Assembly (NCBI GenBank): GCA_947458835.1
Contig: CANHBC010000003.1
Location: forward strand, 1-55,054
Length of the DNA: 55,054 nucleotides
Source of the DNA: Betaproteobacteria bacterium
GTDB taxonomy: Bacteria; Pseudomonadota; Gammaproteobacteria; Burkholderiales; CAIKXV01
Direction: 5' to 3'
Shown here: positions 1-10,191 of the stretch, in pieces
Position numbering within the stretch: position 1 is the first letter of the stretch
How the letters are laid out: each line of letters opens with the position of its first letter
The notes under the pieces: model-generated
Database searches by the model: none
What the model was told of the DNA's origin: nothing
Seen by the model: the letters and a program-made list of their open reading frames with translations, nothing else
Program-made: the position numbers and the translations under genes

Positions 1-925
1 CTTCGGTGTCGACCGGTCTGCGCACCCACGGCCCGCCGTCGGTGCCGAACGCCGCGGCCTGCAGCAGTTGGCGCACGGCGCGGCGGGCTGCACCGTGGCG
101 GCGCAAGTCGCTGCGTTCGTGGGTGGTCGTGCCGCCATCGTCGGCGCCGCCTCGCCGTTCGACCATCGGCCAGCGTGCGACGATGCGTCGTACCTCCGCC
201 ATCAGGTCGGGGTCGGCATGCAGCGGGTCGGTGTCCTGCCCCTCGTCACCCTGGTTGCCGTGGTTGCCGAGCAGGCGGTCGGCACCGTCGGCGTCGAGCG
301 CTACGGCCATCGGGTCCAGCAGTGCGAACAGGTCTGCCGTGGTGGCGCTTGCATCATCGTACAGGCGGCGGTGCACGTCGCCCAGCGCACCTGGCGCGTA
401 GCGTGCAGCAGCGGGCCATCCGGCTGGCGGGCCGATCAGGCTCCAGAGCCCCTCGGGGGCCGCACCAGCCGAGAAGAACGAGGTGAACTCGACGTCCGGA
501 TGCAGCCGGCACAGTTGCGCGTTGATGACGCAGTCGAAGGCCCAGTTGGCCGCCAGGCTGGGGCGCTGGTACATCCGGGTGTGGCCGAGCAGCACGTGGT
601 AGAGCTCGTGCATCACCAGCATCGACAGGTGTGCGTCGGTGCGGCAGCGCTGCGCGACGAACGCGGGGTTGATCAGCATCCGCGAGCACGCACCGACGGT
701 CACCGCCGCAGTGGGCACGGCATCGGTGGCCTCGATCGAGAGCAACTGCAGCAGCTTGCCGAACGCCGGGTGGCGCAACGGCACGCACTGCCGGATGCGG
801 TCGGCGAGCAGTCGCTGCTCGAGCGAAGAGAGCGGGGCGGTGGTGGTTGGGGTGGCGGCGGAGGTGGAGGTTGAGGTGGTGTCCCCGGTGGGCTCCCCGG
901 CGGGCAGTGCGACGGCGTGCGTCAT
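1..925 (-). CDS. DUF2201-like HEXXH metallopeptidase (MoxR-associated; C-terminal vWA expected outside window), 3'-truncated by window edge
   Basis: Not in ORF track. Manual translation from ATG 925 is open to position 1: MTHAVALP...VPTAAVT...MLINPAFVAQRC...LVMHELYHVLLGH...ANWAFDCVIN. Start overlaps the upstream stop (ATGA). Confidence 0.8.
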   Translation of the reverse strand, partial: MTHAVALPAGEPTGDTTSTSTSAATPTTTAPLSSLEQRLLADRIRQCVPLRHPAFGKLLQLLSIEATDAVPTAAVTVGACSRMLINPAFVAQRCRTDAHLSMLVMHELYHVLLGHTRMYQRPSLAANWAFDCVINAQLCRLHPDVEFTSFFSAGAAPEGLWSLIGPPAGWPAAARYAPGALGDVHRRLYDDASATTADLFALLDPMAVALDADGADRLLGNHGNQGDEGQDTDPLHADPDLMAEVRRIVARWPMVERRGGADDGGTTTHERSDLRRHGAARRAVRQLLQAAAFGTDGGPWVRRPVDTE

Positions 926-1731
926 GAGCGGGCTTTCCTCTTCGAGCGGATGGTGGTCGTGACGGGCTGCACCTGGCCGGGCTGCACCGGCAGCCAGATC
1001 TCCCAGGTGCCCGACGGGGTGGCGCCGCTCCAGAGATCGAGCAGGTTCGAAAGCGCCGGCGCCGCATCGCGCAGGAACACCGGCCCGCGGATGGCGGAGA
1101 CCAGACGCGCGGCGAGCAGCGGACAAGCGACGCCCTTCGGTGCGTCGGGCGCCTTTCGTCGGTCGGTGCCGGTGGCAATGTCGCTGCCGAAGGGAATGAC
1201 GAAGGCCACGCGCGGCACCCACTTCGGCCACTCGATCGATTCGAGCCGGGCGGTGAGCTCTTGCACCAGCGCGCCTTCCGGCAGCGGCATCACCCGGTCG
1301 AACTCGCGCCGCGCCGCGCGGCGGGACGCGTCCGGACCATGGGCTCGTCCTGACTGCCGCGCGATGGCGACCAGTGCGCGGGCCAGTCCGAGGGGCGCGG
1401 TCAGGCGCCGCGATGCGAAGGTCATGCGCAGGTGGGCACACAAGGCCGTCGGCAGTTCGACATGAGCCACGCAGAGCGCGTTGGACAGCAACTTGCCGCC
1501 GCCGGGCCCCACGGGTACCGGGCGCGGGGCCTGGGGGGTGGCGTCGCGGCTGGTGGTCGATGGCTCGCAGCTTGCCTGCGACCCTGACGCGCTTGACGCA
1601 ACTCGCGGCAGCGTCAGGGGGCAGCGAACCTGCGCCGCGGACGGGCTCTGCGCCAGCCTCGGCAGCGTCACGGTCGAGCGCGGCGGCGCGCTCATGTTCG
1701 CAAGGGTCGGGGAAGGCGATTCAGGCTGCAT
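922..1731 (-). CDS. Hypothetical protein, middle gene of the MoxR operon
   Basis: 269-aa ORF overlapping both neighbours on the same strand; no motif recognised. Confidence 0.6.
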   Translation of the reverse strand: MQPESPSPTLANMSAPPRSTVTLPRLAQSPSAAQVRCPLTLPRVASSASGSQASCEPSTTSRDATPQAPRPVPVGPGGGKLLSNALCVAHVELPTALCAHLRMTFASRRLTAPLGLARALVAIARQSGRAHGPDASRRAARREFDRVMPLPEGALVQELTARLESIEWPKWVPRVAFVIPFGSDIATGTDRRKAPDAPKGVACPLLAARLVSAIRGPVFLRDAAPALSNLLDLWSGATPSGTWEIWLPVQPGQVQPVTTTIRSKRKARS

Positions 1732-3298
1732 GGTCGTCCGCGAGGTCGAGGTGGGCGCGCAGTGACGACTGCTGGCGCGTCAGCAACGCCGGTTCGGATG
1801 TGCCGTCGTCGTGCGCGTAGAGCGCCGCGCCGAGGTTGCCCAGTGCGACCTGGGCGGGGTCGCCGGTGTCGAGCGCTTCCATCGCGGCGACCAGCTCGTT
1901 GAAGCCGGCGATACGACTGCGCGGGACCTCGTGCCGCAGGTTCGGCCGCTCTTCGAACGACACCTGCGACGTGAACGGCTCGGCGAGCAGTTCCAGCGTC
2001 GTCGCGTCGACGCAGTCCAGCTCGACGAGCGCCGGCAGCAACGTCTGCGCCAGGATCCAGCGCGCCTGCTTTTCCTGCGAAGCCAGGGCGTCGGTCACGA
2101 GCAGCGACATCGTGTGCCGCTCGACCCGACCGGGGCTCGTCTTCAGGACATCCAGCGCCAGGCCGACGCGCCGCACCGGGTGCACCTCATCGAGGATGCG
2201 TGCCAGCGTGGCGTCGCCTTGCGCCAGCGATGCCGCGTCGACCGCCTGCCGGTGGATGGAAGCGACGAGCCCGGCATCGACGGGCTTGCCCTGCGCCCGG
2301 TGCGGCAACGAGTAGCGGAGCGCAACGAGGGCGGTGTCGGCGATCGTACTGCGCTCGGCGCCCGGGTCTTCTTCGCCGCCCGCGTTGCCCGGGCCGTTCG
2401 CGTGGGTCACGTTGACTACGTTGCACTCCCCGAGCGTCATGCGCGCGCCGTGCACGGCCGCGATGTTGGCTGCCAGCATGGCAGCGCGTCGCCCGGAGAT
2501 CGCCAGCCCCGCCTGGCGCAGCGGCACCACCAGCGCCGACGTGTAGGCCGTGATCCATTCGCCGTGCAGCGCCGCGCAGAGCGCGGTGGCGTGCCCGCAC
2601 CGGACCACCAGTGCGGGTACGTCGATCGCCTTGGCCTCCGGGTGGACCGGGCCGAGGCCGCTGCGGATCACGCAGCGGCGCGCTTCGGGCGACAGATCGT
2701 CCAGGGCCGGCAGGTGCAGCACGAAGCCGAACCGGTCCGCCAGCGCGGGGTCGAGCGGGAGCGATCCGACATAGACGTCCAGCTCATCGGGTGCGTCCGG
2801 CGCCGCCGGCGGGTTCATCGCCGCCCAGCGGTAACGCAGTCCGTCCAGCGCGATGCCCTGCACGCGCTTCTCGTGGACGATCGAGAAGAGCTTGTTCTGC
2901 ACCTCGGGCCGGCAGCGGCTGATCTCGTCGAGGAAGACACTCTGCGCGCCCCAGAGCGTGGCCGGCGTGCGCAGGTAGCGCAGGCCATCGCCGTCCGGGA
3001 CGGGGAAGCCCACCAGGTCGTCGAAGGAGATCAGGCTGGCGTTGTAGTGACGGTGCTCGAGCCGCAGCGCGACGGCCAGCCGCTCGAGCAGCGCGCTCTT
3101 CGCGCTGCCGTGCGGCCCGATCAGAAGCATCGGCGTCTCGGACGCCAGCGCCGCCAGCACCGGCGCGTCGAGGTGCGACAGACCGTGAAGGCCGAGACTG
3201 GAGAGCAACCCCGTCGCACGAGTCGATACCGCGACTGTCGTTGCGACGGGTACCGCCGGCTCGCCGGCGTTTTCACCACGAGATGTGCGTTGCTTCAA
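1721..3298 (-). CDS. MoxR-family AAA+ ATPase with long C-terminal extension
   Basis: Walker A GPHGSAKS, Walker B VFLDEISR, AAMNP, LDPALADRF. TTG 3298 follows an AGGAGCAGGAG RBS. Confidence 0.88.
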   Translation of the reverse strand: MKQRTSRGENAGEPAVPVATTVAVSTRATGLLSSLGLHGLSHLDAPVLAALASETPMLLIGPHGSAKSALLERLAVALRLEHRHYNASLISFDDLVGFPVPDGDGLRYLRTPATLWGAQSVFLDEISRCRPEVQNKLFSIVHEKRVQGIALDGLRYRWAAMNPPAAPDAPDELDVYVGSLPLDPALADRFGFVLHLPALDDLSPEARRCVIRSGLGPVHPEAKAIDVPALVVRCGHATALCAALHGEWITAYTSALVVPLRQAGLAISGRRAAMLAANIAAVHGARMTLGECNVVNVTHANGPGNAGGEEDPGAERSTIADTALVALRYSLPHRAQGKPVDAGLVASIHRQAVDAASLAQGDATLARILDEVHPVRRVGLALDVLKTSPGRVERHTMSLLVTDALASQEKQARWILAQTLLPALVELDCVDATTLELLAEPFTSQVSFEERPNLRHEVPRSRIAGFNELVAAMEALDTGDPAQVALGNLGAALYAHDDGTSEPALLTRQQSSLRAHLDLADDHAA

Positions 3299-3627
3299 GC
3301 TCCTGCTCCTCACCGTCCACGCGAGTGGCGCAGGCGGCACCGGACGGAGCAGGGCGCAGCCGACGCTTTAGCAGCATTTGTGGATCGCCCTGCAAGTTGT
3401 CGATCAACTCGGCGATTGAAAATGAAACGGCCCTCGAGAACGAGGGCCGCCTGCCTGCTGTTGTTGCGCTTGCCCCGAAGGACTGCGCCTCATCCCCGAT
3501 CTGGTCGGGTACCACCTTGCCGCAGGACGGCAGGTTGGCGACAGGCAGGCGGCCTGCGCTCTTGATGACATGATGAGGTTACTACGGAGTGGTTTTGGGT
3601 GCAATGGGGTGGTGTCGGGAAGAGTCG

Positions 3628-4056
3628 TTACAACACAGGTAGCCGTTTCCATCCATAGCGCCGCGCTGCCTCGAGCGTCGCGTTCCAGTCCAGGACCCGC
3701 CACGTCCCGTCGCCCTGGGGTAGCGCATTGAGCGGGCCGCGCCGGGCGATGACGCCGGCGCATGCTGCAGCCATCCGCTTCGCTGCGTTGTGCCAGAACG
3801 TCGCCTCCGGCAGTACCGGCTCGCGGCCGTGCAGGCAGTCGATGTCGATCCACCTCGTGTCGGTCACGGTGTCAAAACACGATCCCGGATCGTCTGGCAG
3901 ACGCGTCGGCAGTGGTCCGAGGTCTATGACGCGACGCGCAAACGCCCCGTCGTTTTCGCCAGGAAGACGCGGCGCCCAACCCGCGGGGATCGGTGATCGA
4001 GCGAAAGCGTCGTCTCTCGCGTCTTCCATTGGACCGCCCTTCCGATCGAAGCTCAC
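3628..4056 (-). CDS. Small ParB/Srx-like protein
   Basis: C-terminal PLNALPQGDGTWRVLDWNATLEAARRYGWKRLPV resembles the ParB-N core. GTG start overlaps the regulator stop (GTGA). Confidence 0.5.
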   Translation of the reverse strand: MSFDRKGGPMEDARDDAFARSPIPAGWAPRLPGENDGAFARRVIDLGPLPTRLPDDPGSCFDTVTDTRWIDIDCLHGREPVLPEATFWHNAAKRMAAACAGVIARRGPLNALPQGDGTWRVLDWNATLEAARRYGWKRLPVL

Positions 4057-4724
4057 GCCCGCGGCCCCCGAAACAACTGCGCCGGCCGAAACGCGCCCAC
4101 CCGGAACTCCCCCTCCACCGGCACCAGCAGGTCCCGGTCCGACAGCCGTCGCCGGAAGCTCGACTTGTCGAGCGGGTGGCCTAGCACATGCTCGCAGAAC
4201 GATTGCAGTTCACCGAGCGTGAACGCTTCCGGCAGGCAGCCGAACGGCAGGTCCAGCACGTCGATGTCAGCGCGCATCGCACGCACTGCCTTGTCGACGA
4301 GCGTCGCGTGGTCGAAGGCCAGCGGCGCCGCGATCGCCTCGTCCACGCTGCGCCACGCGAGTGCTTCGATGCGCTTGCCGGCGCTGAAGTCGGGCGCGTC
4401 GGCCGGGACCAGCCCCCGATAGACGACGCTCAGTGCCCAGGGCGCACGCGGATCGCGCTGGGGCCCGCCCACCGCGCACAGCTGGCGCAGCAGCGGCAGC
4501 GGTGCGCCCAGGCGCTCGGTCGCCACGCGCTGTGCGGCGGCGTCGAGCGAGGCGTCGAGATCCACCCGCAGCACCCCGCCGGGCAGCGCCCAGCGCCCGG
4601 CATGCGGCGCCTCGGCGCGTCGGGCGAGCAGGACCTGCAGCGTGCCCTCGCGCACCGCGAAGACTGCGAACTCGAGTCGGGTGAAAGGCATCGGATGGAT
4701 TGAGGGAGTAGGCGTGGCAGCCAT
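4053..4724 (-). CDS. nrtR: NrtR-family Nudix + winged-helix transcriptional regulator
   Basis: LQVLLARR...WALPGG, degenerate Nudix box, RDPR, LAFDH, then wHTH FTLGELQ...LDKSSFRRRL...RPAQLF. Start uncertain (4691/4724/4754). Confidence 0.85.
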   Translation of the reverse strand: MAATPTPSIHPMPFTRLEFAVFAVREGTLQVLLARRAEAPHAGRWALPGGVLRVDLDASLDAAAQRVATERLGAPLPLLRQLCAVGGPQRDPRAPWALSVVYRGLVPADAPDFSAGKRIEALAWRSVDEAIAAPLAFDHATLVDKAVRAMRADIDVLDLPFGCLPEAFTLGELQSFCEHVLGHPLDKSSFRRRLSDRDLLVPVEGEFRVGAFRPAQLFRGPRA

Positions 4725-4745
4725 GCTGTGTGGACCGAAAGTTGA

Positions 4746-4800
4746 TAGTTGCATCGTACACCTAAGATATGCATACTGTGTTCGTTGCTAAATGCAACTA
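4746..4800. promoter_or_regulatory. Two 19-bp palindromic operators (TAGTTGCA-N3-TGCAACTA-like) in the divergent promoter
   Basis: TAGTTGCATCGTACACCTA (4746-4764) and TCGTTGCTAAATGCAACTA (4782-4800) in an AT-rich spacer, next to the AGGAGG RBS at 4801. Confidence 0.7.
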
Positions 4801-4811
4801 AGGAGGCTCGA

Positions 4812-5780
4812 TTGAATGCTTACGATGTGATCGGCGACATCCACGGCTATGCCGCACCGCTCGAGGCGCTGCTGGGGCGGATGGGCTACGTCCCGAATGG
4901 GAAGGGCTGGCGCGCGCCGGTCGGGCGCAAGGCCGTCTTCGTTGGCGACCTGGTCGACCGGGGTCCCGAGCAGGTGCGGGTTGTGGAACTGGTGCGGTCG
5001 ATGGTCGACGACGGACAGGCGGTGTGTGTGCTCGGCAACCACGAGTACAGCGCGATCGGCTGGGTGACCCGGCGGCTGGGGCCCGACGGGAAGCCCGTCG
5101 GCGAAGGCAAACGCTTGGATGAGTTGCCGCCGGAGGCGTGGTTGAAGAAGCACACGGCACGGAACCTGGACAACCACGCCGAGTTTCTGAAGCAGGTGGA
5201 GGAGGGGTCCGATCTGCACAAGGACATGATCCGGTGGTTCCGCACGCTACCGGTCGCGCTGGACCTCGGTGGCATCCGCGTCGCCCACGCCTGGTGGAAC
5301 GACACGTTCGTCCGGCGTCTGGACGAGCGCCTGCGCAACGGTCTTGACGACGCGTTCCTGCAGGTCGCGGGCGTGAGAGGGTCACCGGAGTGGCTGGCGA
5401 TGGAAGGCGTGACCAAGGGGCTGGAGGCGAAACTGCCTGATGGCGTGACCTTCGTCGACCACGGCGGGGTCGTGCGGCCTGAGGTACGTCTGCGCTGGTG
5501 GTTGCCCAAGGGCAGCAGCTGGCGCGCGGCAGCCTTCGTCTCGGACGAAGCGCGCGAGCGGCTGTGCGACCGCACGCCAGTACCCGACTGCGACGGCTTC
5601 GGCGAGGTCGAGGGCGCACCGGTGTTCATCGGCCACTACTGGATGGACGGGCCGCGTACGCCGCAGTCGTCGAAGGTCGCCTGCTGCGACTACTCGGTGC
5701 CGAGGTCGGGTCGGATGGTGGCGTATCGGTGGGATGGGGAGGCGGAACTCAGTTCAGCCAACTTCGTGGAGGCGAGGTGA
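4812..5780 (+). CDS. Calcineurin-like metallophosphoesterase (ApaH/PrpE-like)
   Basis: Motifs GDIHG, GDLVDRG, GNHE, GHYW. TTG start after AGGAGG. Confidence 0.88.
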   Translation: MNAYDVIGDIHGYAAPLEALLGRMGYVPNGKGWRAPVGRKAVFVGDLVDRGPEQVRVVELVRSMVDDGQAVCVLGNHEYSAIGWVTRRLGPDGKPVGEGKRLDELPPEAWLKKHTARNLDNHAEFLKQVEEGSDLHKDMIRWFRTLPVALDLGGIRVAHAWWNDTFVRRLDERLRNGLDDAFLQVAGVRGSPEWLAMEGVTKGLEAKLPDGVTFVDHGGVVRPEVRLRWWLPKGSSWRAAAFVSDEARERLCDRTPVPDCDGFGEVEGAPVFIGHYWMDGPRTPQSSKVACCDYSVPRSGRMVAYRWDGEAELSSANFVEAR

Positions 5781-6313
5781 TGCCTGTCGATGATGCTCTG
5801 GATGTTTCGCGCGGGGGCGCATCGGTGGTCGGTGCCGTTTTTGAAAGCCCCGTCGAGCGGGCGGTTGTCATCGCACTGCACGCGCACCGCGGACAGGTCG
5901 ACAAGGCGGGTGCACCGTACGTGCTCCACCCGCTGCGCATGATGGCGAGGATGACCGACGATGACTCGCGCATGGCCGCCGTGCTGCACGACGTTGTCGA
6001 GGATAGCCCCGGCTGGACCTTCGAACGGCTGCGCGCGGAGGGAATCCCCGATGCGGTCGTCGAGGCGGTTGCCTTCCTCACGAAGCGCCCCGAAGAGGAA
6101 GGCGACTACGAGGCGTTCATCCGACGCGCCGCGCGCAATCCGATCGCATGCCGCGTGAAGGTTGCGGATCTGGAGGACAACATGGATCTGTCGAGGATTG
6201 CCGCGCCGGGGGAGCGGGACTTTCGGTGGGTCGAGAAGTACCGGAAGGCGAAGGTGTTGTTGGAGCAGTTGGGTGACCGTGTGCCGGCTTCGAAGGATGC
6301 CTCGGACCACTGA
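5780..6313 (+). CDS. Stand-alone HD hydrolase, Mesh1/SpoT (small alarmone hydrolase)-like
   Basis: AHRGQVDKAGAPYVLHP, AAVLHDVVED, VKVADLEDN. TGATG coupling to the upstream gene. Confidence 0.85.
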   Translation: MPVDDALDVSRGGASVVGAVFESPVERAVVIALHAHRGQVDKAGAPYVLHPLRMMARMTDDDSRMAAVLHDVVEDSPGWTFERLRAEGIPDAVVEAVAFLTKRPEEEGDYEAFIRRAARNPIACRVKVADLEDNMDLSRIAAPGERDFRWVEKYRKAKVLLEQLGDRVPASKDASDH

Positions 6314-6319
6314 GAAATG

Positions 6320-7135
6320 TCAGTAGCCTGCAAGTGGCGGCAAGTCGCGCGCCAGCCCTGCGTCGGTACTCGGCGTCATGAGCAATGCGGCAAGACTTTC
6401 GGCTAGTGCCACAGTCACCTGTCCCCACTCCCCGCGCGAGCCATACTTTGAAGGATGCCCAACCATCAGGAGAGGCGTCGTTCTGCCAACGCACTCGACC
6501 AGCGCGTCTGCGCGGCGAAAGATCTGAGCGGGCGAGCGACCGTTTGGCGTGAACACCGCGTTTGCCTGACTTTCAGTGATCGTACCGGGCGCGCAGTGAA
6601 GCTTCGTGAACAGGCTGTATGCCGTGCTGGAGATCAACAGGATTGCACGTGGCTGGACGGCAGTGATGATTCGCGACAGGAATGGTTTCGCCTCCAGCGC
6701 CGCCTGCCGCGGATCCATGCTGAGCGACTGCGTGTCGCGGGAGCGGCGAAAAATGACGTTGGTCATCGGCACCTGCCGGATGATGTCTACAGAGCGGGTG
6801 TCGAGTGCAGCCGATAGAAGATCGTACAGGGGCCGCGCGAGCGAATATCTCGGATCATTCCGGAAGCGGGGAATGTCATGCTCCCAGTTCTCAAAGAAGC
6901 TCGAAGACGCTGCCAGGCTCGGGCCATTCTCGGCGCCGCCTGGATTCTGCCCCAGGACAAGCAGGGGGGATGGATCGATCCGGGAGTAGAAGATCTTGTA
7001 TTGGCCGGGGGTGGAAAAGCCGGTGACCGCACGATAGTCACGGTCGATCTCTTGCATCAACGCAGGCGTTGCGTCGAGGTCGGATGAATTCGTCGCACCA
7101 GGGCCGGAGGCCTGCTGAAACTCGATCTTTTGCAT
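6320..7135 (-). CDS. Uracil-DNA glycosylase-fold protein
   Basis: LLVLGQNPGG, TNVIFRRS, VGHPS match UDG-superfamily motif order. Confidence 0.65.
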   Translation of the reverse strand: MQKIEFQQASGPGATNSSDLDATPALMQEIDRDYRAVTGFSTPGQYKIFYSRIDPSPLLVLGQNPGGAENGPSLAASSSFFENWEHDIPRFRNDPRYSLARPLYDLLSAALDTRSVDIIRQVPMTNVIFRRSRDTQSLSMDPRQAALEAKPFLSRIITAVQPRAILLISSTAYSLFTKLHCAPGTITESQANAVFTPNGRSPAQIFRRADALVECVGRTTPLLMVGHPSKYGSRGEWGQVTVALAESLAALLMTPSTDAGLARDLPPLAGY

Positions 7136-7137
7136 GT

Positions 7138-7398
7138 TCAGTGCCCCTGTCGAATGACGGTGATGACTTCATCGGTCGCCGGATCGACGACGATGGCCGT
7201 GTTCATGAAGCGGCTCATCTGCTTCACGACGGTCGGGCCGACACCGCGCCCCAGTGCCCGTCGCGCTCGCTTGTCGAAGACGACGCGCTCTGCCGCATGC
7301 GAGGATTGGCGGGTGCCGTAAGCCAGAAGCCAATCCACGATCAACGGTGGAATACAGCGTTGCTGGGCTCGGACCTGTGCATGTCGCGTGAGAGTCAT
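7138..7398 (-). CDS. DUF4258-like small protein
   Basis: MTLTRHAQVRAQQRCIP...EVITVI pattern; overlaps the upstream stop. Confidence 0.65.
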   Translation of the reverse strand: MTLTRHAQVRAQQRCIPPLIVDWLLAYGTRQSSHAAERVVFDKRARRALGRGVGPTVVKQMSRFMNTAIVVDPATDEVITVIRQGH

Positions 7399-8201
7399 TT
7401 CTGCTTTACTTTTCCAGAGAGCTTCGAGGCGGCGGAGCTCCTTCGCTCGATAGCAGAGTCCGGCAAGTAACAGTTGAGGCCGGTCAGTTCGTCGTCCTCG
7501 AGCAGCATGCCGAAGGGCGTGAAGTAGTAAGGGCCCTCCAGCAGGGGAGCTTTGTCTGCTCCGTCACTCTCTGTGCCGCATTCCAGGCATTCCACGTAGA
7601 GCTTCTGAAGAAGTGCGCGGTAGGGTTGCAGAGGATCGAACACGACCGTCGCGATCCGTCCGAGCGGGGCGAATGCGCGATCGATGTCGTCCGTTTCGGC
7701 ATCGAATTGCGTCGCCTGGAGGTTCTTGACCAGCGTGCGCACGTGGTCCGGGCCCATTTGCGTGACGAGCACCTGGTTACTCGGACTGATGGGCTGATCG
7801 GGGATCATGAAGAAGTGATCGTGGAGGAACTCGGTCGACGCACCGAGGAGCATGAGAAGCCGGTTGAGCAGGCACTCGCGCGGGATATTCTTCTCCGTGC
7901 AGACCTCTTCCAGCAGTTGCGCCACGGAAGGGTCCAGGGCCAGTGAGATCTGGCTGGAGCCGTCCACTCCCGCGAACAGACTCTTGAGCTTGATCTCCAG
8001 GTAGCGGCGGGCTTCCGGGCTGTTGGTTACGGTCAGCTCCTCGCGGATGCGAGGAAGTTCCTTCGCCAATGCTCGGGTGATAAGGCCGTCGCGCCTTATG
8101 CAGGCGGCATCCGACCGCTCGTTAAGGGCGTCGAGGATGGGTTGCCAGACGCGGAGGGTGATCTTTGCGCGAGGGGCGATTGCTGGTTGCTTGGTAGCCA
8201 T
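7395..8201 (-). CDS. Hypothetical protein with two ribbon-helix-helix-like segments
   Basis: KITLRVWQPILDALNERSDAACIRRDGLITRAL and QISLALDPSVAQLLEEVCTEKNIPRECLLNRLL. Confidence 0.6.
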   Translation of the reverse strand: MATKQPAIAPRAKITLRVWQPILDALNERSDAACIRRDGLITRALAKELPRIREELTVTNSPEARRYLEIKLKSLFAGVDGSSQISLALDPSVAQLLEEVCTEKNIPRECLLNRLLMLLGASTEFLHDHFFMIPDQPISPSNQVLVTQMGPDHVRTLVKNLQATQFDAETDDIDRAFAPLGRIATVVFDPLQPYRALLQKLYVECLECGTESDGADKAPLLEGPYYFTPFGMLLEDDELTGLNCYLPDSAIERRSSAASKLSGKVKQK

Positions 8202-8210
8202 GACCAAAGA

Positions 8211-8228
8211 CTAAGGCAAAATCCTTAG
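8211..8228. promoter_or_regulatory. Palindrome CTAAGG-N6-CCTTAG, candidate autoregulatory operator
   Basis: CTAAGGCAAAATCCTTAG immediately upstream of the RHH-like gene. Confidence 0.4.
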
Positions 8229-8372
8229 AAATGCAAGGCGCACGGAATAACCGCTCGCATCAACCTCGGGAATCGTTATTACAAGGGCGTTTCATGGCGG
8301 CGCGTTGCGATCGATGACCGGCTACGTTCTTCTCTCTTCCGGTTGTCGCGTATTCCCGAAAAGGTATAGGCT

Positions 8373-8528
8373 GTGCCCGAGGGTCATGAATCCAGGCCGC
8401 TCTTCTGGATCGCCAGCAGCAAGAGGGACCTGATGGCATTGCCGCTCCGCGTGCGGAGGTTCTTCGGTCACGCATTGGACTTCGCGCAACATGCAGAGGA
8501 GTTGCGACATGGCAAGGCGCGTCATTGA
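8373..8528 (+). pseudogene. Internally deleted RelE/Gp49-like toxin remnant
   Basis: 51-codon ORF MPEGHESRPLFWIASSKRDLMALPLRVRRFFGHALDFAQ|HAEELRHGKARH: N-terminus joined to a short tail. Preceded by imperfect palindrome TATTCCCGAAAAGGTATA. Confidence 0.7.
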
Positions 8529-8844
8529 TGGCATCGAGGTCGAACGTGGTTCGGGCAACGTCTTTGCCGACCTGGGCCTGCCGGATGCGGAGAAGCTCAA
8601 GATCAAATCGGGGCTGGTGATCGAGATTACCCGGGCAGTGCGTCGCCTCGGGCTCACGCAGGAAGATGCGGGTCGCCGCATGGGCATCCCGCAGCCGAAA
8701 GTGTCCGGTTTGATGCGTGGCGATTTCGCCAATCTGTCCGAGCGCAAGCTGATGGATTGCCTGAACCGACTAGGCTATGACATCGAGATACGCGTACGGC
8801 GCACGGCTGATCCGGTCGGGCAGTTGAAGTTGGCGATTGCGTGA
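8509..8844 (+). CDS. XRE-family HTH antitoxin (HigA-like)
   Basis: GSGNVFADLGLPDAE...LTQEDAGRRMGIPQPKVSGLMRG...LGYDIEI. Confidence 0.88.
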   Translation: MARRVIDGIEVERGSGNVFADLGLPDAEKLKIKSGLVIEITRAVRRLGLTQEDAGRRMGIPQPKVSGLMRGDFANLSERKLMDCLNRLGYDIEIRVRRTADPVGQLKLAIA

Positions 8845-8974: not shown

Positions 8975-9991
8975 CTACTGCGGCTTGATGTTGGCGACCT
9001 CCGCGACCTGGCGCCACATCGCGATCTCCTTGCGTACCCGGGCTTCGAACTCCTCCGGGGTATTGCCGACAGGCTCGCCACCGATCTCCAGCATGCGCTG
9101 CCGGATATCGGGCTGTTGCAGGACGGCCGCCACATCGTTGCGGATACGCTGCACCAGTTCGCGCGCGGCCCCTTTCGGCGCCATCAGGCCGAACCAGGAG
9201 ACGGACTCGAAGCCTGGGAGACCGTCGGCGATCACGGGTGCCTCGGGAAAGAGCACGGAAGGCGTGAGCGATCCGACGCCGATGATCCTCGCCCGCCCCG
9301 ACTTGACGGCCGACTGCACCGAACTGATCGCAGCGATCGCAAGTGGGATGTGGCCGCCCAGCAGGTCGGTCATCAACGGCCCCGCACCCTTGTAGGGAAT
9401 GGGTTCCACGCTCACCTTGGCCAGCATGTTGAAGTTGTAGGTCGCCAGCGGCGAGCCGGTGTTGCCCATGTTCATCTGCTTGGGGCGGGCTTTGGCCAGG
9501 GCGATCAGTTCGCGGGCATTGCGCACGGGCAGCGACGGATGCGCGACGATCGCATGCGGCGAGATCGTCACGAGCGTGATCGGCACCAGATCGGTGTGTG
9601 GATCGTAGGGAAGCTTCGCGTAGGTGATCGGCGCGTTGGTGAAGAGATTCGACGTGAGCAGCAGGGTATGGCCGTCGGGGGCGCTCTTCGCGACCAGATC
9701 GGTACCGATGACCGTGCCCGCGCCCGGGCGGGGATCGAGCACGATCTGCTGCTTCCACCGTTCGGTGAGCGCCGGCATGATGATCCGCGCATTCGCATCG
9801 CTGCTTCCCCCGACTGCGAAGGGGATCACCAGTCGAATCGGTTTGGCGGGGAAAGCCTGGGAGAATGCCGAGCCCGTCGCAAGTAGCAACAGTCCGGAGA
9901 CGCATCCGATGGCTGATGAACGCAACTGTGATCGGCTGCACGGATCGACCGACGCCGCCACCGCTCCTCGTCCCGTAACGCGCTCGATCAT
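8975..9991 (-). CDS. Bug/TctC tripartite tricarboxylate transporter solute-binding protein
   Basis: FPAKPIRLVIPFAVGGSSD, PGAGTVIG, IPYKGAGP. Start uncertain. Confidence 0.9.
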   Translation of the reverse strand: MIERVTGRGAVAASVDPCSRSQLRSSAIGCVSGLLLLATGSAFSQAFPAKPIRLVIPFAVGGSSDANARIIMPALTERWKQQIVLDPRPGAGTVIGTDLVAKSAPDGHTLLLTSNLFTNAPITYAKLPYDPHTDLVPITLVTISPHAIVAHPSLPVRNARELIALAKARPKQMNMGNTGSPLATYNFNMLAKVSVEPIPYKGAGPLMTDLLGGHIPLAIAAISSVQSAVKSGRARIIGVGSLTPSVLFPEAPVIADGLPGFESVSWFGLMAPKGAARELVQRIRNDVAAVLQQPDIRQRMLEIGGEPVGNTPEEFEARVRKEIAMWRQVAEVANIKPQ

Positions 9992-10191
9992 GCGAGTCGT
10001 CCCTATTGTTGGTCTGGTCTGGCGCTTCGACTGCAAGAGCGCGCGATCGGCCACCGTTTTTTACACAGTACCACATGGTGAGCGGGAGCTTGTTGCAGGG
10101 ACGTTCGTGGAGGCATCGTTACCAACGTCGCTGCATCAAGGCACGCAGGGGGATCTATTTCTTAACATCTACATCAGGCGCCGGAGGCCCG

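Follow-up and report, generated by a model that had tools for sequence, protein, structure and literature searches.

Does the start of contig CANHBC010000003.1 from a Betaproteobacteria bacterium (assembly GCA_947458835.1) carry one nucleotide-sensing conflict locus, or two neighbouring units that answer to different signals? The window analysed here, i.e., the whole stretch of 55,054 nucleotides, is the first 55 kb of this contig (C3) in a 257-contig draft genome of 3.76 Mb, referred to as G000 (G denotes genomes compared, L loci fetched and C contigs of G000). An original prediction, made from the sequence of the first 6,313 nucleotides, had proposed a single module in which an NrtR-like regulator senses the breakdown of nicotinamide adenine dinucleotide (NAD+) and induces nucleotide hydrolases on one arm and a ParB/Srx-like open reading frame (ORF) with a MoxR / unknown / HEXXH "chaperone-protease" operon on the other. 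Gene calls combining GC3 phase (G+C at third codon positions), ORF lists and family scans (Pfam, NCBIfam) showed all described genes to be present. We consider it probable, at about 0.6, that these genes form two separate units placed side by side. Unit A (3628–6313) would be an NrtR hydrolase regulon, with nrtR and the ParB/Srx-fold ORF on one arm and the genes for a metallophosphoesterase (MPE) and an HD-domain hydrolase (HD) on the opposite arm. Unit B (1–3573), which is cut by the contig end and continues on contig C229, would be an operon responsive to S-adenosylmethionine (SAM).

A riboswitch between the ParB/Srx-fold ORF and MoxR

The element that divides the locus lies between the ParB/Srx-fold ORF and the MoxR gene and had been overlooked in the original prediction: a SAM-I/IV riboswitch aptamer followed directly by an intrinsic terminator (Table 1). 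The aptamer scored above the gathering score and is placed upstream of the genes, and the terminator is, from its sequence, read as the probable expression platform. The hairpin was also considered as the end of the nrtR transcript; this candidate was dropped because the aptamer is located directly upstream of it. Downstream, the MoxR / unknown / HEXXH operon was found as proposed, and the three genes, encoding a MoxR-class AAA+ ATPase, an orphan protein X and a DUF2201_N protein with the HEXXH motif, are linked by overlapping stops and starts.

Since the window begins at a contig end, the HEXXH gene is cut. Contig C229 overlaps the window start by 377 nt (97% identity; 94% at the protein level), and on this contig the HEXXH protein continues into a VWA domain with a DxSGS motif (VWA_CoxE, 30.7 bits); the orthologue in genome G070 scored 25.7 bits, just under the 26.4-bit cut-off. 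Both the HExxH and the D-S-G motifs were invariant across 30 DUF2201_N/VWA sequences. A MoxR-class AAA+ ATPase is thus encoded together with a VWA protein, and the proposed "chaperone-protease" was not upheld, as the HEXXH protein is the DUF2201_N/VWA partner of MoxR and nothing shows it to be a protease.

In C229 as well as in G070, the VWA gene is followed by a divergent MetK-like gene. The MetK-like protein aligned over its full length with solved MetK proteins (E 5.6e-33) and has kept the GHPDK and GGGAxSGKD motifs. G000 also contains a canonical metK on contig C136, which is 27% identical to the MetK-like protein.

Unit B recurs independently of the NrtR-controlled genes. With the VWA protein as anchor, a metagenome scan gave 80 loci (31–84% identity), whose gene order was determined by tblastn. 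The MoxR-X-VWA order was the same throughout, the MetK-like gene was found directly after the VWA gene in 50 loci, and the majority of the remaining loci stop at the VWA gene or shortly beyond it. NrtR was present in none of the 80, and the lone MPE signal was a single match of 27%. When the HEXXH protein was searched in a class sample of 400 scored genomes, four matched including G000, with a clear match in G070 only. There, genes for MoxR, an X-like protein, DUF2201_N/VWA and a MetK-like protein are found in this order, with cysS, gltX and a phzF-like gene as neighbours and with neither NrtR nor MPE. No match to the VWA protein was obtained by tblastn against 72,556 plasmids.

The riboswitch recurs together with the operon. 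Among 28 Unit B loci with upstream DNA, Rfam scans detected a SAM-I/IV riboswitch in 19 and a SAM-II riboswitch in one (L132), in each case on the same strand upstream of MoxR. A SAM-I/IV aptamer was present at the same position in five related genome loci, and G070 showed a sub-threshold SAM-II match (29 bits; gathering score 36). The presence of two riboswitch classes at one position argues that SAM control has been selected. Judged by sequence comparison, Unit B appears to be a conserved operon that is controlled by SAM and independent of NrtR. Low SAM would lead to read-through into the operon, and the MoxR/VWA pair may then mature, activate or remodel the divergent SAM synthetase or another SAM-linked client. 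A complex prediction for the DUF2201_N/VWA protein (30-row alignment) and the MetK-like protein (26 rows) gave a score of 0.00, which speaks neither way.

Compared with the MoxR/VWA maturation pairs NorQ-NorD, RavA-ViaA and CoxD-CoxE, as far as these are covered by the sources at hand, Unit B shares a MoxR-class ATPase and a VWA domain with DxSGS of the type found in metal-ion-dependent adhesion sites (MIDAS). It differs in that its VWA protein has an additional N-terminal DUF2201_N domain with HExxH, in the conserved orphan third protein X, and in that the operon starts with a SAM riboswitch and ends in a divergent SAM synthetase. "DUF2201" and "MoxR" were found together in no paper by literature search, "SAM riboswitch" was not mentioned in the parts of the MoxR/VWA literature searched, and an eLife 2020 paper on MoxR-vWA conflict systems contained neither "MetK" nor "riboswitch" (0 occurrences each).

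Protein X had no match in Pfam (even at E ≤ 10), NCBIfam or PADLOC and no usable match in a protein atlas, where its model had a predicted local distance difference test (pLDDT) value of 0.35; its frame is supported by GC3 phase. Its N-terminal NMSAPPR motif was of the NMSAPP[R/K] type in 41 of 54 extracted orthologous ORFs, some of these extractions being faulty. The true start of the MoxR gene is uncertain, as the GC3 signal fades above ~3180.

Some further features of these genes were noted. The junction of the X and HEXXH genes (843–914) encodes a variable linker rich in Thr, Ser, Ala and Pro, which breaks the DNA alignment in all same-genus genomes and is the site of 72–93-nt skips in metagenome contigs. 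The MetK-like frame of loci L124 (2273–4057) and L125 (10344–12128) has 594 residues compared to ~375–400 elsewhere, which could reflect a C-terminal extension or a missed stop. The sole other SAM-I/IV riboswitch of G000 (58.6 bits) is located on C229 (L008, 2895–3463, minus strand) ahead of a gene for a 143-aa DUF3293 protein (66.9 bits), which is convergent with the MetK-like gene. Another DUF3293 gene is found two genes from an NrtR homologue in L201, and DUF3293 may link the SAM and NrtR themes.

Hydrolases under predicted NrtR control

The regulator of Unit A shows the architecture of the NrtR family, an N-terminal Nudix-like domain joined to a C-terminal winged helix, and was found as a single copy in G000. 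It scored 152 bits against the NCBIfam NrtR equivalog model, under the 400-bit cut-off, and its closest solved relatives were 3GZ5 (E 7.8e-29), deposited as a MutT/nudix family protein, which we take to be NrtR of S. oneidensis, and AraR 5BS6 (E 3.5e-28). As originally described, it is situated at a divergent promoter, where it faces the MPE gene across two palindromes (Table 1) with the 21-bp consensus TTAGTTGCA-N3-TGCAACTAA. The inverted repeat reported earlier at 4746–4754/4792–4800 is not a single repeat: the two arms are the outer halves of two separate 21-bp palindromes.

Two such NrtR boxes, ~36 bp apart from start to start and flanking a −10-like hexamer, were present in 21 of 21 NrtR-MPE intergenic regions (the window, 19 genome loci and G007). 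A position weight matrix built from 42 sites was scanned over the whole 3.76-Mb draft; nothing outside the box pair scored over 14.2 bits, and no box was found ahead of MoxR or of any NAD gene. With only two strong sites in G000, predicted NrtR control is limited to its own and the MPE-HD transcripts. In agreement with the earlier statement that no NAD genes are adjacent, none was seen among the ORFs family-scanned up to ~16.4 kb of the window. NrtR would repress its own transcript (nrtR and the ParB/Srx-fold ORF) and the MPE-HD transcript, and binding of ADP-ribose or a close NAD-derived nucleotide by the Nudix-like domain would lift this repression.

In the passages available of Rodionov et al. 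(2008; PMC2330246), NrtR operators are described as 21-bp palindromes with a GT-N7-AC core. Compared with these canonical regulons, Unit A shares the Nudix-like domain with winged helix, what appear from sequence to be 21-bp palindromic operators, and a divergent layout compatible with autoregulation. It differs in having hydrolases as targets instead of NAD synthesis or salvage genes, in a core reading TG-N7-CA / GT-N11-AC instead of GT-N7-AC, and in that no other site was found in G000.

The coupled ApaH-like and Mesh1/SpoT-like hydrolases of the original prediction are present and overlap, the ATG of the HD gene sharing one base with the TGA stop codon of the MPE gene, and their identity could be refined. 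The MPE, translated from a TTG behind the ribosome-binding site AAGGAGG at 4799, belongs to an uncharacterised family with 1211 relatives at E ≤ 1e-10, also present on 43 plasmid records. All metal-binding motifs are retained (D9, H11, D46, N76, H77, H159 and H275 invariant in 20 sequences). Its best solved relative was the Pnkp phosphatase PDB 4J6O (E 3.4e-20), and against NCBIfam models it scored 84 bits for Pnkp, 53 for PrpE (cut-off 340) and 41 and 23 for ApaH (cut-offs 176 and 223), every score, that for Pnkp included, lying well under its cut-off. The matches to the PrpE and ApaH models span residues 3–83 only, and no NCBIfam model of ApaH or PrpE hydrolases of diadenosine tetraphosphate (Ap4A) was matched at full length over its cut-off.

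The HD protein resembles the small alarmone hydrolase Aph1, its best solved relative being the "(p)ppApp hydrolase" 7SMG (Table 1). All six signature residues that the passages available of Ahmad et al. (2023; PMC10083569) give for Aph1 (D24, R96, D116, R119, K133 and Y134) are kept in the 7SMG alignment as D41, R116, D136, R139, K153 and Y154 of the window protein. It differs from this family in its coupling to an MPE under an NrtR operator, "Nudix" and "metallophosph" having 0 occurrences in these passages, and in that no (p)ppApp synthetase toxin was identified beside the Unit A HD gene. When induced, the HD enzyme would hydrolyse (p)ppApp, and the MPE would act on a nucleotide resembling ADP-ribose or Ap4A, cleaving a phosphoanhydride or phosphoester bond.

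The third protein under predicted NrtR control is encoded by the 142-aa ORF whose GTG start overlaps the nrtR stop, as in the original description of a ParB/Srx-like ORF coupled to nrtR. Pfam gave nothing for this ORF even at E ≤ 10. A family profile of 32 sequences matched Noc (E 4.8e-5) and SbnI (E 9.4e-4) in PDB, and an AlphaFold 2 model based on the same 32 sequences reached a pLDDT of 86.4; it superseded an earlier model from four sequences that was unusable (pLDDT 40.6). The top Foldseek matches of the model were only ParB, Noc, Srx, SbnI and SerK at probability 0.99–1.0, with E 5e-3 or weaker and a template modelling (TM) score of ~0.4, and a protein atlas gave a lead only (ParB_N clusters at score 0.93). 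From the profile search and the modelled structure together, the protein is assigned the ParB/Srx fold.

The GERRxR motif binds cytidine triphosphate in ParB-type proteins. The ORF family shares the fold of this superfamily (ParB, Noc, sulfiredoxin, SbnI, SerK), but has DGN(A/S)T at the aligned position instead of a nucleotide-binding motif of the GERRxR type. The family motif is vLDGN.T..AA..GW..lPV, and the window copy reads DWNAT. The ORF is also without a helix-turn-helix (HTH) or other DNA-binding extension. While a word-index search gave three relatives, a full profile search gave 293 at E ≤ 1e-3, and these are mostly internal domains of giant multi-domain proteins of 600–5000 residues. 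Partner domains in 18 scanned relatives included ddrB-ParB (two), ADP-ribosyltransferase (one), GH108 (one) and RelA_SpoT (three, one of them weak). No match to the ORF was found by tblastn in 50,697 phage records. The ParB/Srx-fold protein may bind or modify a nucleotide.

The NrtR-MPE pair was found to recur outside the window, as the original prediction required of its genes. Among 80 MPE-anchored genome loci (38–91% identity), NrtR was divergent to MPE in 19, including nearly all at ~46% identity or more; one further locus (L040) had both boxes and no NrtR match. The neighbours of the pair in 17 loci were varied (transposases, integrases, primase, HipAB, PhoX), and no NAD gene or common third gene was found beside it in these. 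Distant MPE homologues adjoin genes for LOG/SLOG, 5′-nucleotidase, WYL-WCX (L055), HEPN, NERD, HsdR, Mrr and GmrSD with cREC_REC. L087 was considered as a link between MPE and the MetK-like protein and was rejected, as the MetK encoded there is of the canonical type and scores 220 bits with the C-terminal domain model.

Anchoring on NrtR, a homologue at E ≤ 1e-20 was found in 58 of 401 genomes of the order, and 30 loci were read. Outside the genus, NrtR was at least 59% identical in four genomes. In G779 and G723 it faces MPE. In G784, from a different family, it faces a single ORF that joins an Aph1-like HD domain (66% identical) and a ParB/Srx-like domain (39% identical), and both NrtR boxes lie upstream of this fusion. 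In G801, neither MPE nor the fusion was found; toxin-antitoxin and Abi genes (TumE, AbiE, reverse transcriptase) and a weak HD-like match only were present. The 21 NrtR relatives at 46% identity or less adjoin ARG (ADP-ribosylglycohydrolase) and/or PARG genes (seven), SPFH/Band_7 genes (six), nadA (four), TY-Chap3 with a DSP-type phosphatase (one), DUF3293 (one) or other genes (two). As a separate observation, the NrtR homologues divergent from or adjoining SPFH/Band_7 genes (L195, L202, L205, L206, L208 and L209) are 37–43% identical and from the same order, and SPFH/Band_7 was not mentioned as an NrtR target class in the portions of the NrtR literature consulted.

Within the genus (14 genomes), the NrtR-MPE pair is kept in G003, G005, G006 and G007 and partly in G002; G014 has only NrtR and MPE remnants left, and on the contigs examined no NrtR accompanies the MPE copies detected in G013 and G009. 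In G003 and G005, the first 35 HD codons are kept and the sequence then jumps to window position 8253. These remnants point to MPE-HD as the older state in the genus. In contigs of another study, HD was found at ~93% identity, joined 6490 to 8278. In G002, G003, G006 and G014, the place of the 142-aa ORF is taken by YefM/YoeB-like and MNT/HEPN-like modules, the YefM/YoeB-like and nucleotidyltransferase/HEPN-like names being taken from reading the translations and not from a family scan. Unit A behaves as accessory DNA: its partner genes are variable, and its surroundings include toxin-antitoxin genes, transposases and integrases. The slot from the nrtR stop to the riboswitch was itself noted as an insertion hot spot, as seen in loci of same-genus genomes (L015, 7826–9215; L017, 1475–3165; L010, 3421–4315; L019, 8252–9100).

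Iyer, Burroughs, Anantharaman and Aravind (2022, Viruses 14:1977; PMC9503650, section 3.8) predicted "ARG-centric" systems directed against viral ADP-ribosylation. According to the passages available of that article, such a system consists of ARG together with an ADP-ribose-sensing repressor of the Nudix-HTH or WYL type, phosphatases (among them rhodanese-phosphatases, calcineurin-like and alarmone-type HD enzymes and HAD 5′-nucleotidases), chaperones (among them vWA, SseB, TY-Chap and YbjN-like proteins) and nucleases, and Nudix-HTH regulators that sense ADP-ribose were proposed to induce the calcineurin-like or alarmone-type HD phosphatases of conflict systems. Unit A shares with these systems the Nudix-HTH (NrtR-like) negative regulator, the tightly coupled phosphatases in the form of an overlapping MPE-HD gene pair, and a gene content that varies and accretes between close genomes in an island context. 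It differs in having neither an ADP-ribosylglycohydrolase nor a rhodanese-phosphatase, and its ParB/Srx-fold partner is not mentioned in these passages ("ParB" and "Srx", 0 occurrences). As to a peptide-binding chaperone, a VWA protein is adjacent but belongs to a separately regulated operon, and a YbjN-like ORF follows MPE in L041 (E 0.0033).

Further connections to ADP-ribose were found in related loci. On the conjugative plasmid CP003092, a 47% identical NrtR is encoded opposite a YbjN-like gene and an ADP-ribosylglycohydrolase gene; it has two boxes of the same motif at a distance of 36 bp, and an MPE homologue (45% identical) lies 3.5 kb away. ARG genes occur within ~2 kb of MPE in four Thiocapsa loci from related genomes, and a WYL-WCX regulator is encoded beside the distant MPE homologue in L055. 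By literature search, NrtR was combined with "metallophosphoesterase" in no paper found and with "ADP-ribosylglycohydrolase" only in PMC9503650. By analogy, the cassette may work like the predicted ARG-centric anti-ADP-ribosylation systems minus the glycohydrolase, its induced proteins removing adenine-nucleotide products. An ADP-ribose-sensing conflict module is a plausible reading on this basis, and one that was partly anticipated in print as a prediction, the ARG-centric systems being, in the passages available, computational predictions themselves. The supplementary datasets of PMC9503650 and PMC10083569 (the latter with neighbourhoods of ~800 Aph homologues), which extend beyond the passages used here, may already list NrtR-MPE-HD or ParB/Srx contexts.

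Table 1. Features of the two units and of the region following Unit A (positions in the window).
Feature	Position	Strand	Evidence and remarks
DUF2201_N "putative metallopeptidase" domain, HELYH (Unit B gene 3, cut)	2–925	−	PF13203, 28.4 bits
Orphan protein X, 269 aa (Unit B gene 2)	922–1731	−	GC3 phase
MoxR-class AAA+ ATPase (Unit B gene 1)	1721–3340	−	AAA_5, 38 bits; bpMoxR, 24.5 bits
Intrinsic terminator, directly after aptamer	3425–3452	−	12-bp stem then TTTCATTTTC; terminator scan and sequence
SAM-I/IV riboswitch aptamer, upstream of MoxR	3450–3573	−	RF01725, 44.9 bits (gathering score 41.1)
Predicted ParB/Srx-fold ORF, 142 aa, co-directional with nrtR	3628–4056	−	Family profile, AlphaFold 2, Foldseek
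NrtR-family regulator (Nudix-like sensor and winged helix)	4053–4724, alternative start 4754	−	PF21906 (NrtR_WHD), 62 bits; PF00293 (NUDIX), 41.4 bits
NrtR box 1	4745–4765	.	ATAGTTGCATCGTACACCTAA, imperfect 21-bp palindrome; 25.4 bits, second-best site of G000
NrtR box 2	4781–4801	.	TTCGTTGCTAAATGCAACTAA, overlaps MPE ribosome-binding site; 33.5 bits, best site of G000
MPE, lambda-phosphatase / PrpE / ApaH / Pnkp-phosphatase branch	4812–5780, TTG start	+	Metallophos, 47.6 bits
Aph1-type small alarmone hydrolase (HD domain)	5780–6313	+	7SMG, E 7.8e-32
UDG-superfamily gene	6320–7135	−	29.4 bits
86-aa ORF	7138–7398	−	Weak DUF4258 match, E 0.03
270-aa gene without assigned family	7395–8207	−	
51-aa ORF	8373–8528		No Pfam match
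HTH_37 antitoxin-like gene	8491–8844	+	90.6 bits
TctC/Bug-family receptor gene	8975–10054	−	173 bits

The region behind Unit A was also annotated. Window positions 5885–8253 form an indel relative to G003 and G005 with lower G+C content, which contains the 3′ part of the HD gene; across the window, G+C is ~0.70 in the first 5 kb and drops to ~0.60 between 6 and 10 kb. The HTH_37 antitoxin-like gene is preceded only by the 51-aa ORF, which by inspection looks like a truncated toxin partner, and in G013 and G007 this HTH_37 gene is found immediately ahead of an MPE paralogue. The TctC/Bug gene has many 66–70% identical paralogues in every genome of the genus and is followed by ordinary genes for short-chain dehydrogenases/reductases and branched-chain amino-acid ATP-binding cassette transporters up to ~16.4 kb.

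Weighing one unit against two

The original proposal that NrtR senses NAD+ breakdown and induces, besides the hydrolases, the MoxR / X / HEXXH arm as part of one module is in our view distinctly unlikely. It draws on several observations that at the same time weigh against a separation into two units. The units are adjacent in G000, G002, G003, G006 and G014, and in L025, with a MoxR of only 39% identity, they adjoin in rearranged order. Either way, Unit B follows an NrtR-controlled unit on the same strand, where read-through could subject its expression to both signals, and the terminator scan found no terminator between the ParB-like ORF (3628) and the aptamer (3573). The vWA chaperones among the accessories that the passages of PMC9503650 list for ARG-centric systems, and the DUF3293 genes found both behind the second SAM-I/IV riboswitch on C229 and beside the NrtR homologue in L201, point in the same direction. 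Against this stand the riboswitch and terminator owned by the MoxR arm, its MetK-like partner, the lack of an NrtR box upstream of MoxR, and the recurrence of the arm with neither NrtR nor a clear MPE in all 80 metagenome loci and, beside cysS, gltX and phzF-like genes, in G070. Conversely, G005 has NrtR-MPE without Unit B within the 12 kb fetched, and Unit B is near MPE in only two of the 80 MPE-anchored loci (L023 and L025), one of them from the same genus. The part of the original grouping that stands is that of NrtR, the ParB/Srx-like ORF, MPE and HD, which co-group elsewhere as seen from recurrence, shared operators and one fusion; the MoxR arm was not found to belong to it.

Two further alternatives concern the nature of Unit A. 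It could serve nucleotide housekeeping, NrtR tuning an Ap4A/ADP-ribose-type phosphohydrolase and an alarmone hydrolase to NAD turnover during stress or stationary phase, a reading we hold to be possible and rather unlikely. NrtR relatives from the same order control nadA (the four noted above) and are found in a PnuC/isochorismatase-type salvage context; most Aph1 homologues are, according to the passages available of PMC10083569, outside phage-associated contexts; and the PADLOC-DB 2.0 search suggested in the original prediction, which was run on nine window proteins, recognised none of them as a real match (the sole matches were two of AAA type on MoxR, E 0.003 and 0.01). Small RNA-library contigs match nrtR and MPE at 95–98% identity, a weak hint of expression only, since DNA carry-over is possible. 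In the sequencing runs compared, parts of the window lacking cover (X3–X5) and the small covered shares (X6–X19) were given no weight. A housekeeping role fits poorly with the patchy distribution within the genus, where the protein search found the ParB-like ORF in none of 14 genomes and where, on the contigs examined, only NrtR and MPE remnants are left in G014 and MPE stands without NrtR in G013 and G009. It also fits poorly with the transposase, integrase, primase, HipAB, TumE, AbiE and reverse transcriptase genes in the neighbourhood, with the HsdR, Mrr, NERD, GmrSD, HEPN and WYL genes beside distant MPE homologues, and with the plasmid records of the MPE family. Alternatively, the ParB-like ORF and the HD gene could be mobile-DNA passengers beside a two-gene NrtR-MPE cassette to which they are functionally unconnected. 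Positions 3614–4065 are specific to G000, with toxin-antitoxin modules filling this slot in the four genomes named above; 5885–8253 is an indel in a region of falling G+C content; and the ParB-like domain is typical of giant proteins with ADP-ribosyltransferase, lysozyme or RelA_SpoT domains. This explanation is very unlikely in view of G784, where both domains are fused under two NrtR boxes in a different family, of the HD remnants in G003 and G005, and of the overlap of both genes with the stop codon of the preceding gene.

Other observations count against the two-unit reading as worked out here. For Unit B, L148 and L181 contain ample sequence beyond the VWA gene and yet no MetK-like match, and eight of the 28 loci with upstream DNA had no riboswitch at gathering score. 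For Unit A, HD was directly after MPE in none of 79 MPE-anchored loci outside the genus lineage, and in L023, from the same genus, only as a 35-codon remnant. The 142-aa ORF was found in none of 14 same-genus genomes by protein search, and it has W where G is nearly invariant in the family, so that it may be inactive or a passenger. A BLASTP search with HD, MPE and NrtR against 149 ParB-like-domain representatives showed none carrying HD and no further fusion. The likeness of MPE to PrpE, ApaH and Pnkp is confined to its N-terminal 80–115 residues. Sensors of the NrtR family can bind other ligands, and the regulator is as close to AraR, an L-arabinose regulator, as to 3GZ5. Finally, no ADP_ribosyl_GH domain was found in the locus and no ARG homologue in G000 (tblastn with three ARG proteins, E ≤ 1e-4), which leaves Unit A without the component that defines the closest described system.

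Possible significance

Gene adjacency misled the first reading of this locus, and an overlooked RNA element redrew the operon boundaries. Taken jointly, the two units might be a glycohydrolase-free NrtR cassette with interchangeable adenine-nucleotide erasers and a SAM-starvation-induced operon for a back-up SAM synthetase assisted by a chaperone, although we regard this full combination as tentative and rather doubtful.

Unit B may represent a new operon type, for which no description was found in the literature searches, composed of a SAM riboswitch (I/IV or II), MoxR, X (NMSAPPR), DUF2201_N/VWA and a MetK paralogue. It ties a MoxR/VWA remodelling pair to SAM homeostasis via two riboswitch classes, and the MetK paralogue, if it is the client, would be a new kind of MoxR client. 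If this is true, the back-up SAM synthetase may step in under attack on the housekeeping MetK or on the SAM pool, e.g., by SAM-degrading enzymes of phages, and Unit B would explain what the genes do that stand behind many SAM-I/IV riboswitches in environmental bacteria.

The NrtR cassette may likewise be new, with a Nudix-HTH sensor of an NAD-derived nucleotide inducing a PrpE/Pnkp-like MPE, an Aph1 (p)ppApp hydrolase and a ParB/Srx-fold protein. NrtR is known for controlling NAD synthesis; here a whole subfamily (at least 59% identity) is dedicated to nucleotide hydrolases and lacks NAD genes. Unit A offers a defined operator, a candidate ligand, a widespread uncharacterised MPE family and a new candidate ParB/Srx-type domain tied to the Aph1 hydrolase by gene fusion, and, with three or four genes, provides a compact test of the idea that ADP-ribose released in an attack is sensed and answered by nucleotide-clearing enzymes. 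If this holds true, the cassette would be a general antidote to attack by NADases, ADP-ribosyltransferases or (p)ppApp synthetases of phages or rival bacteria.

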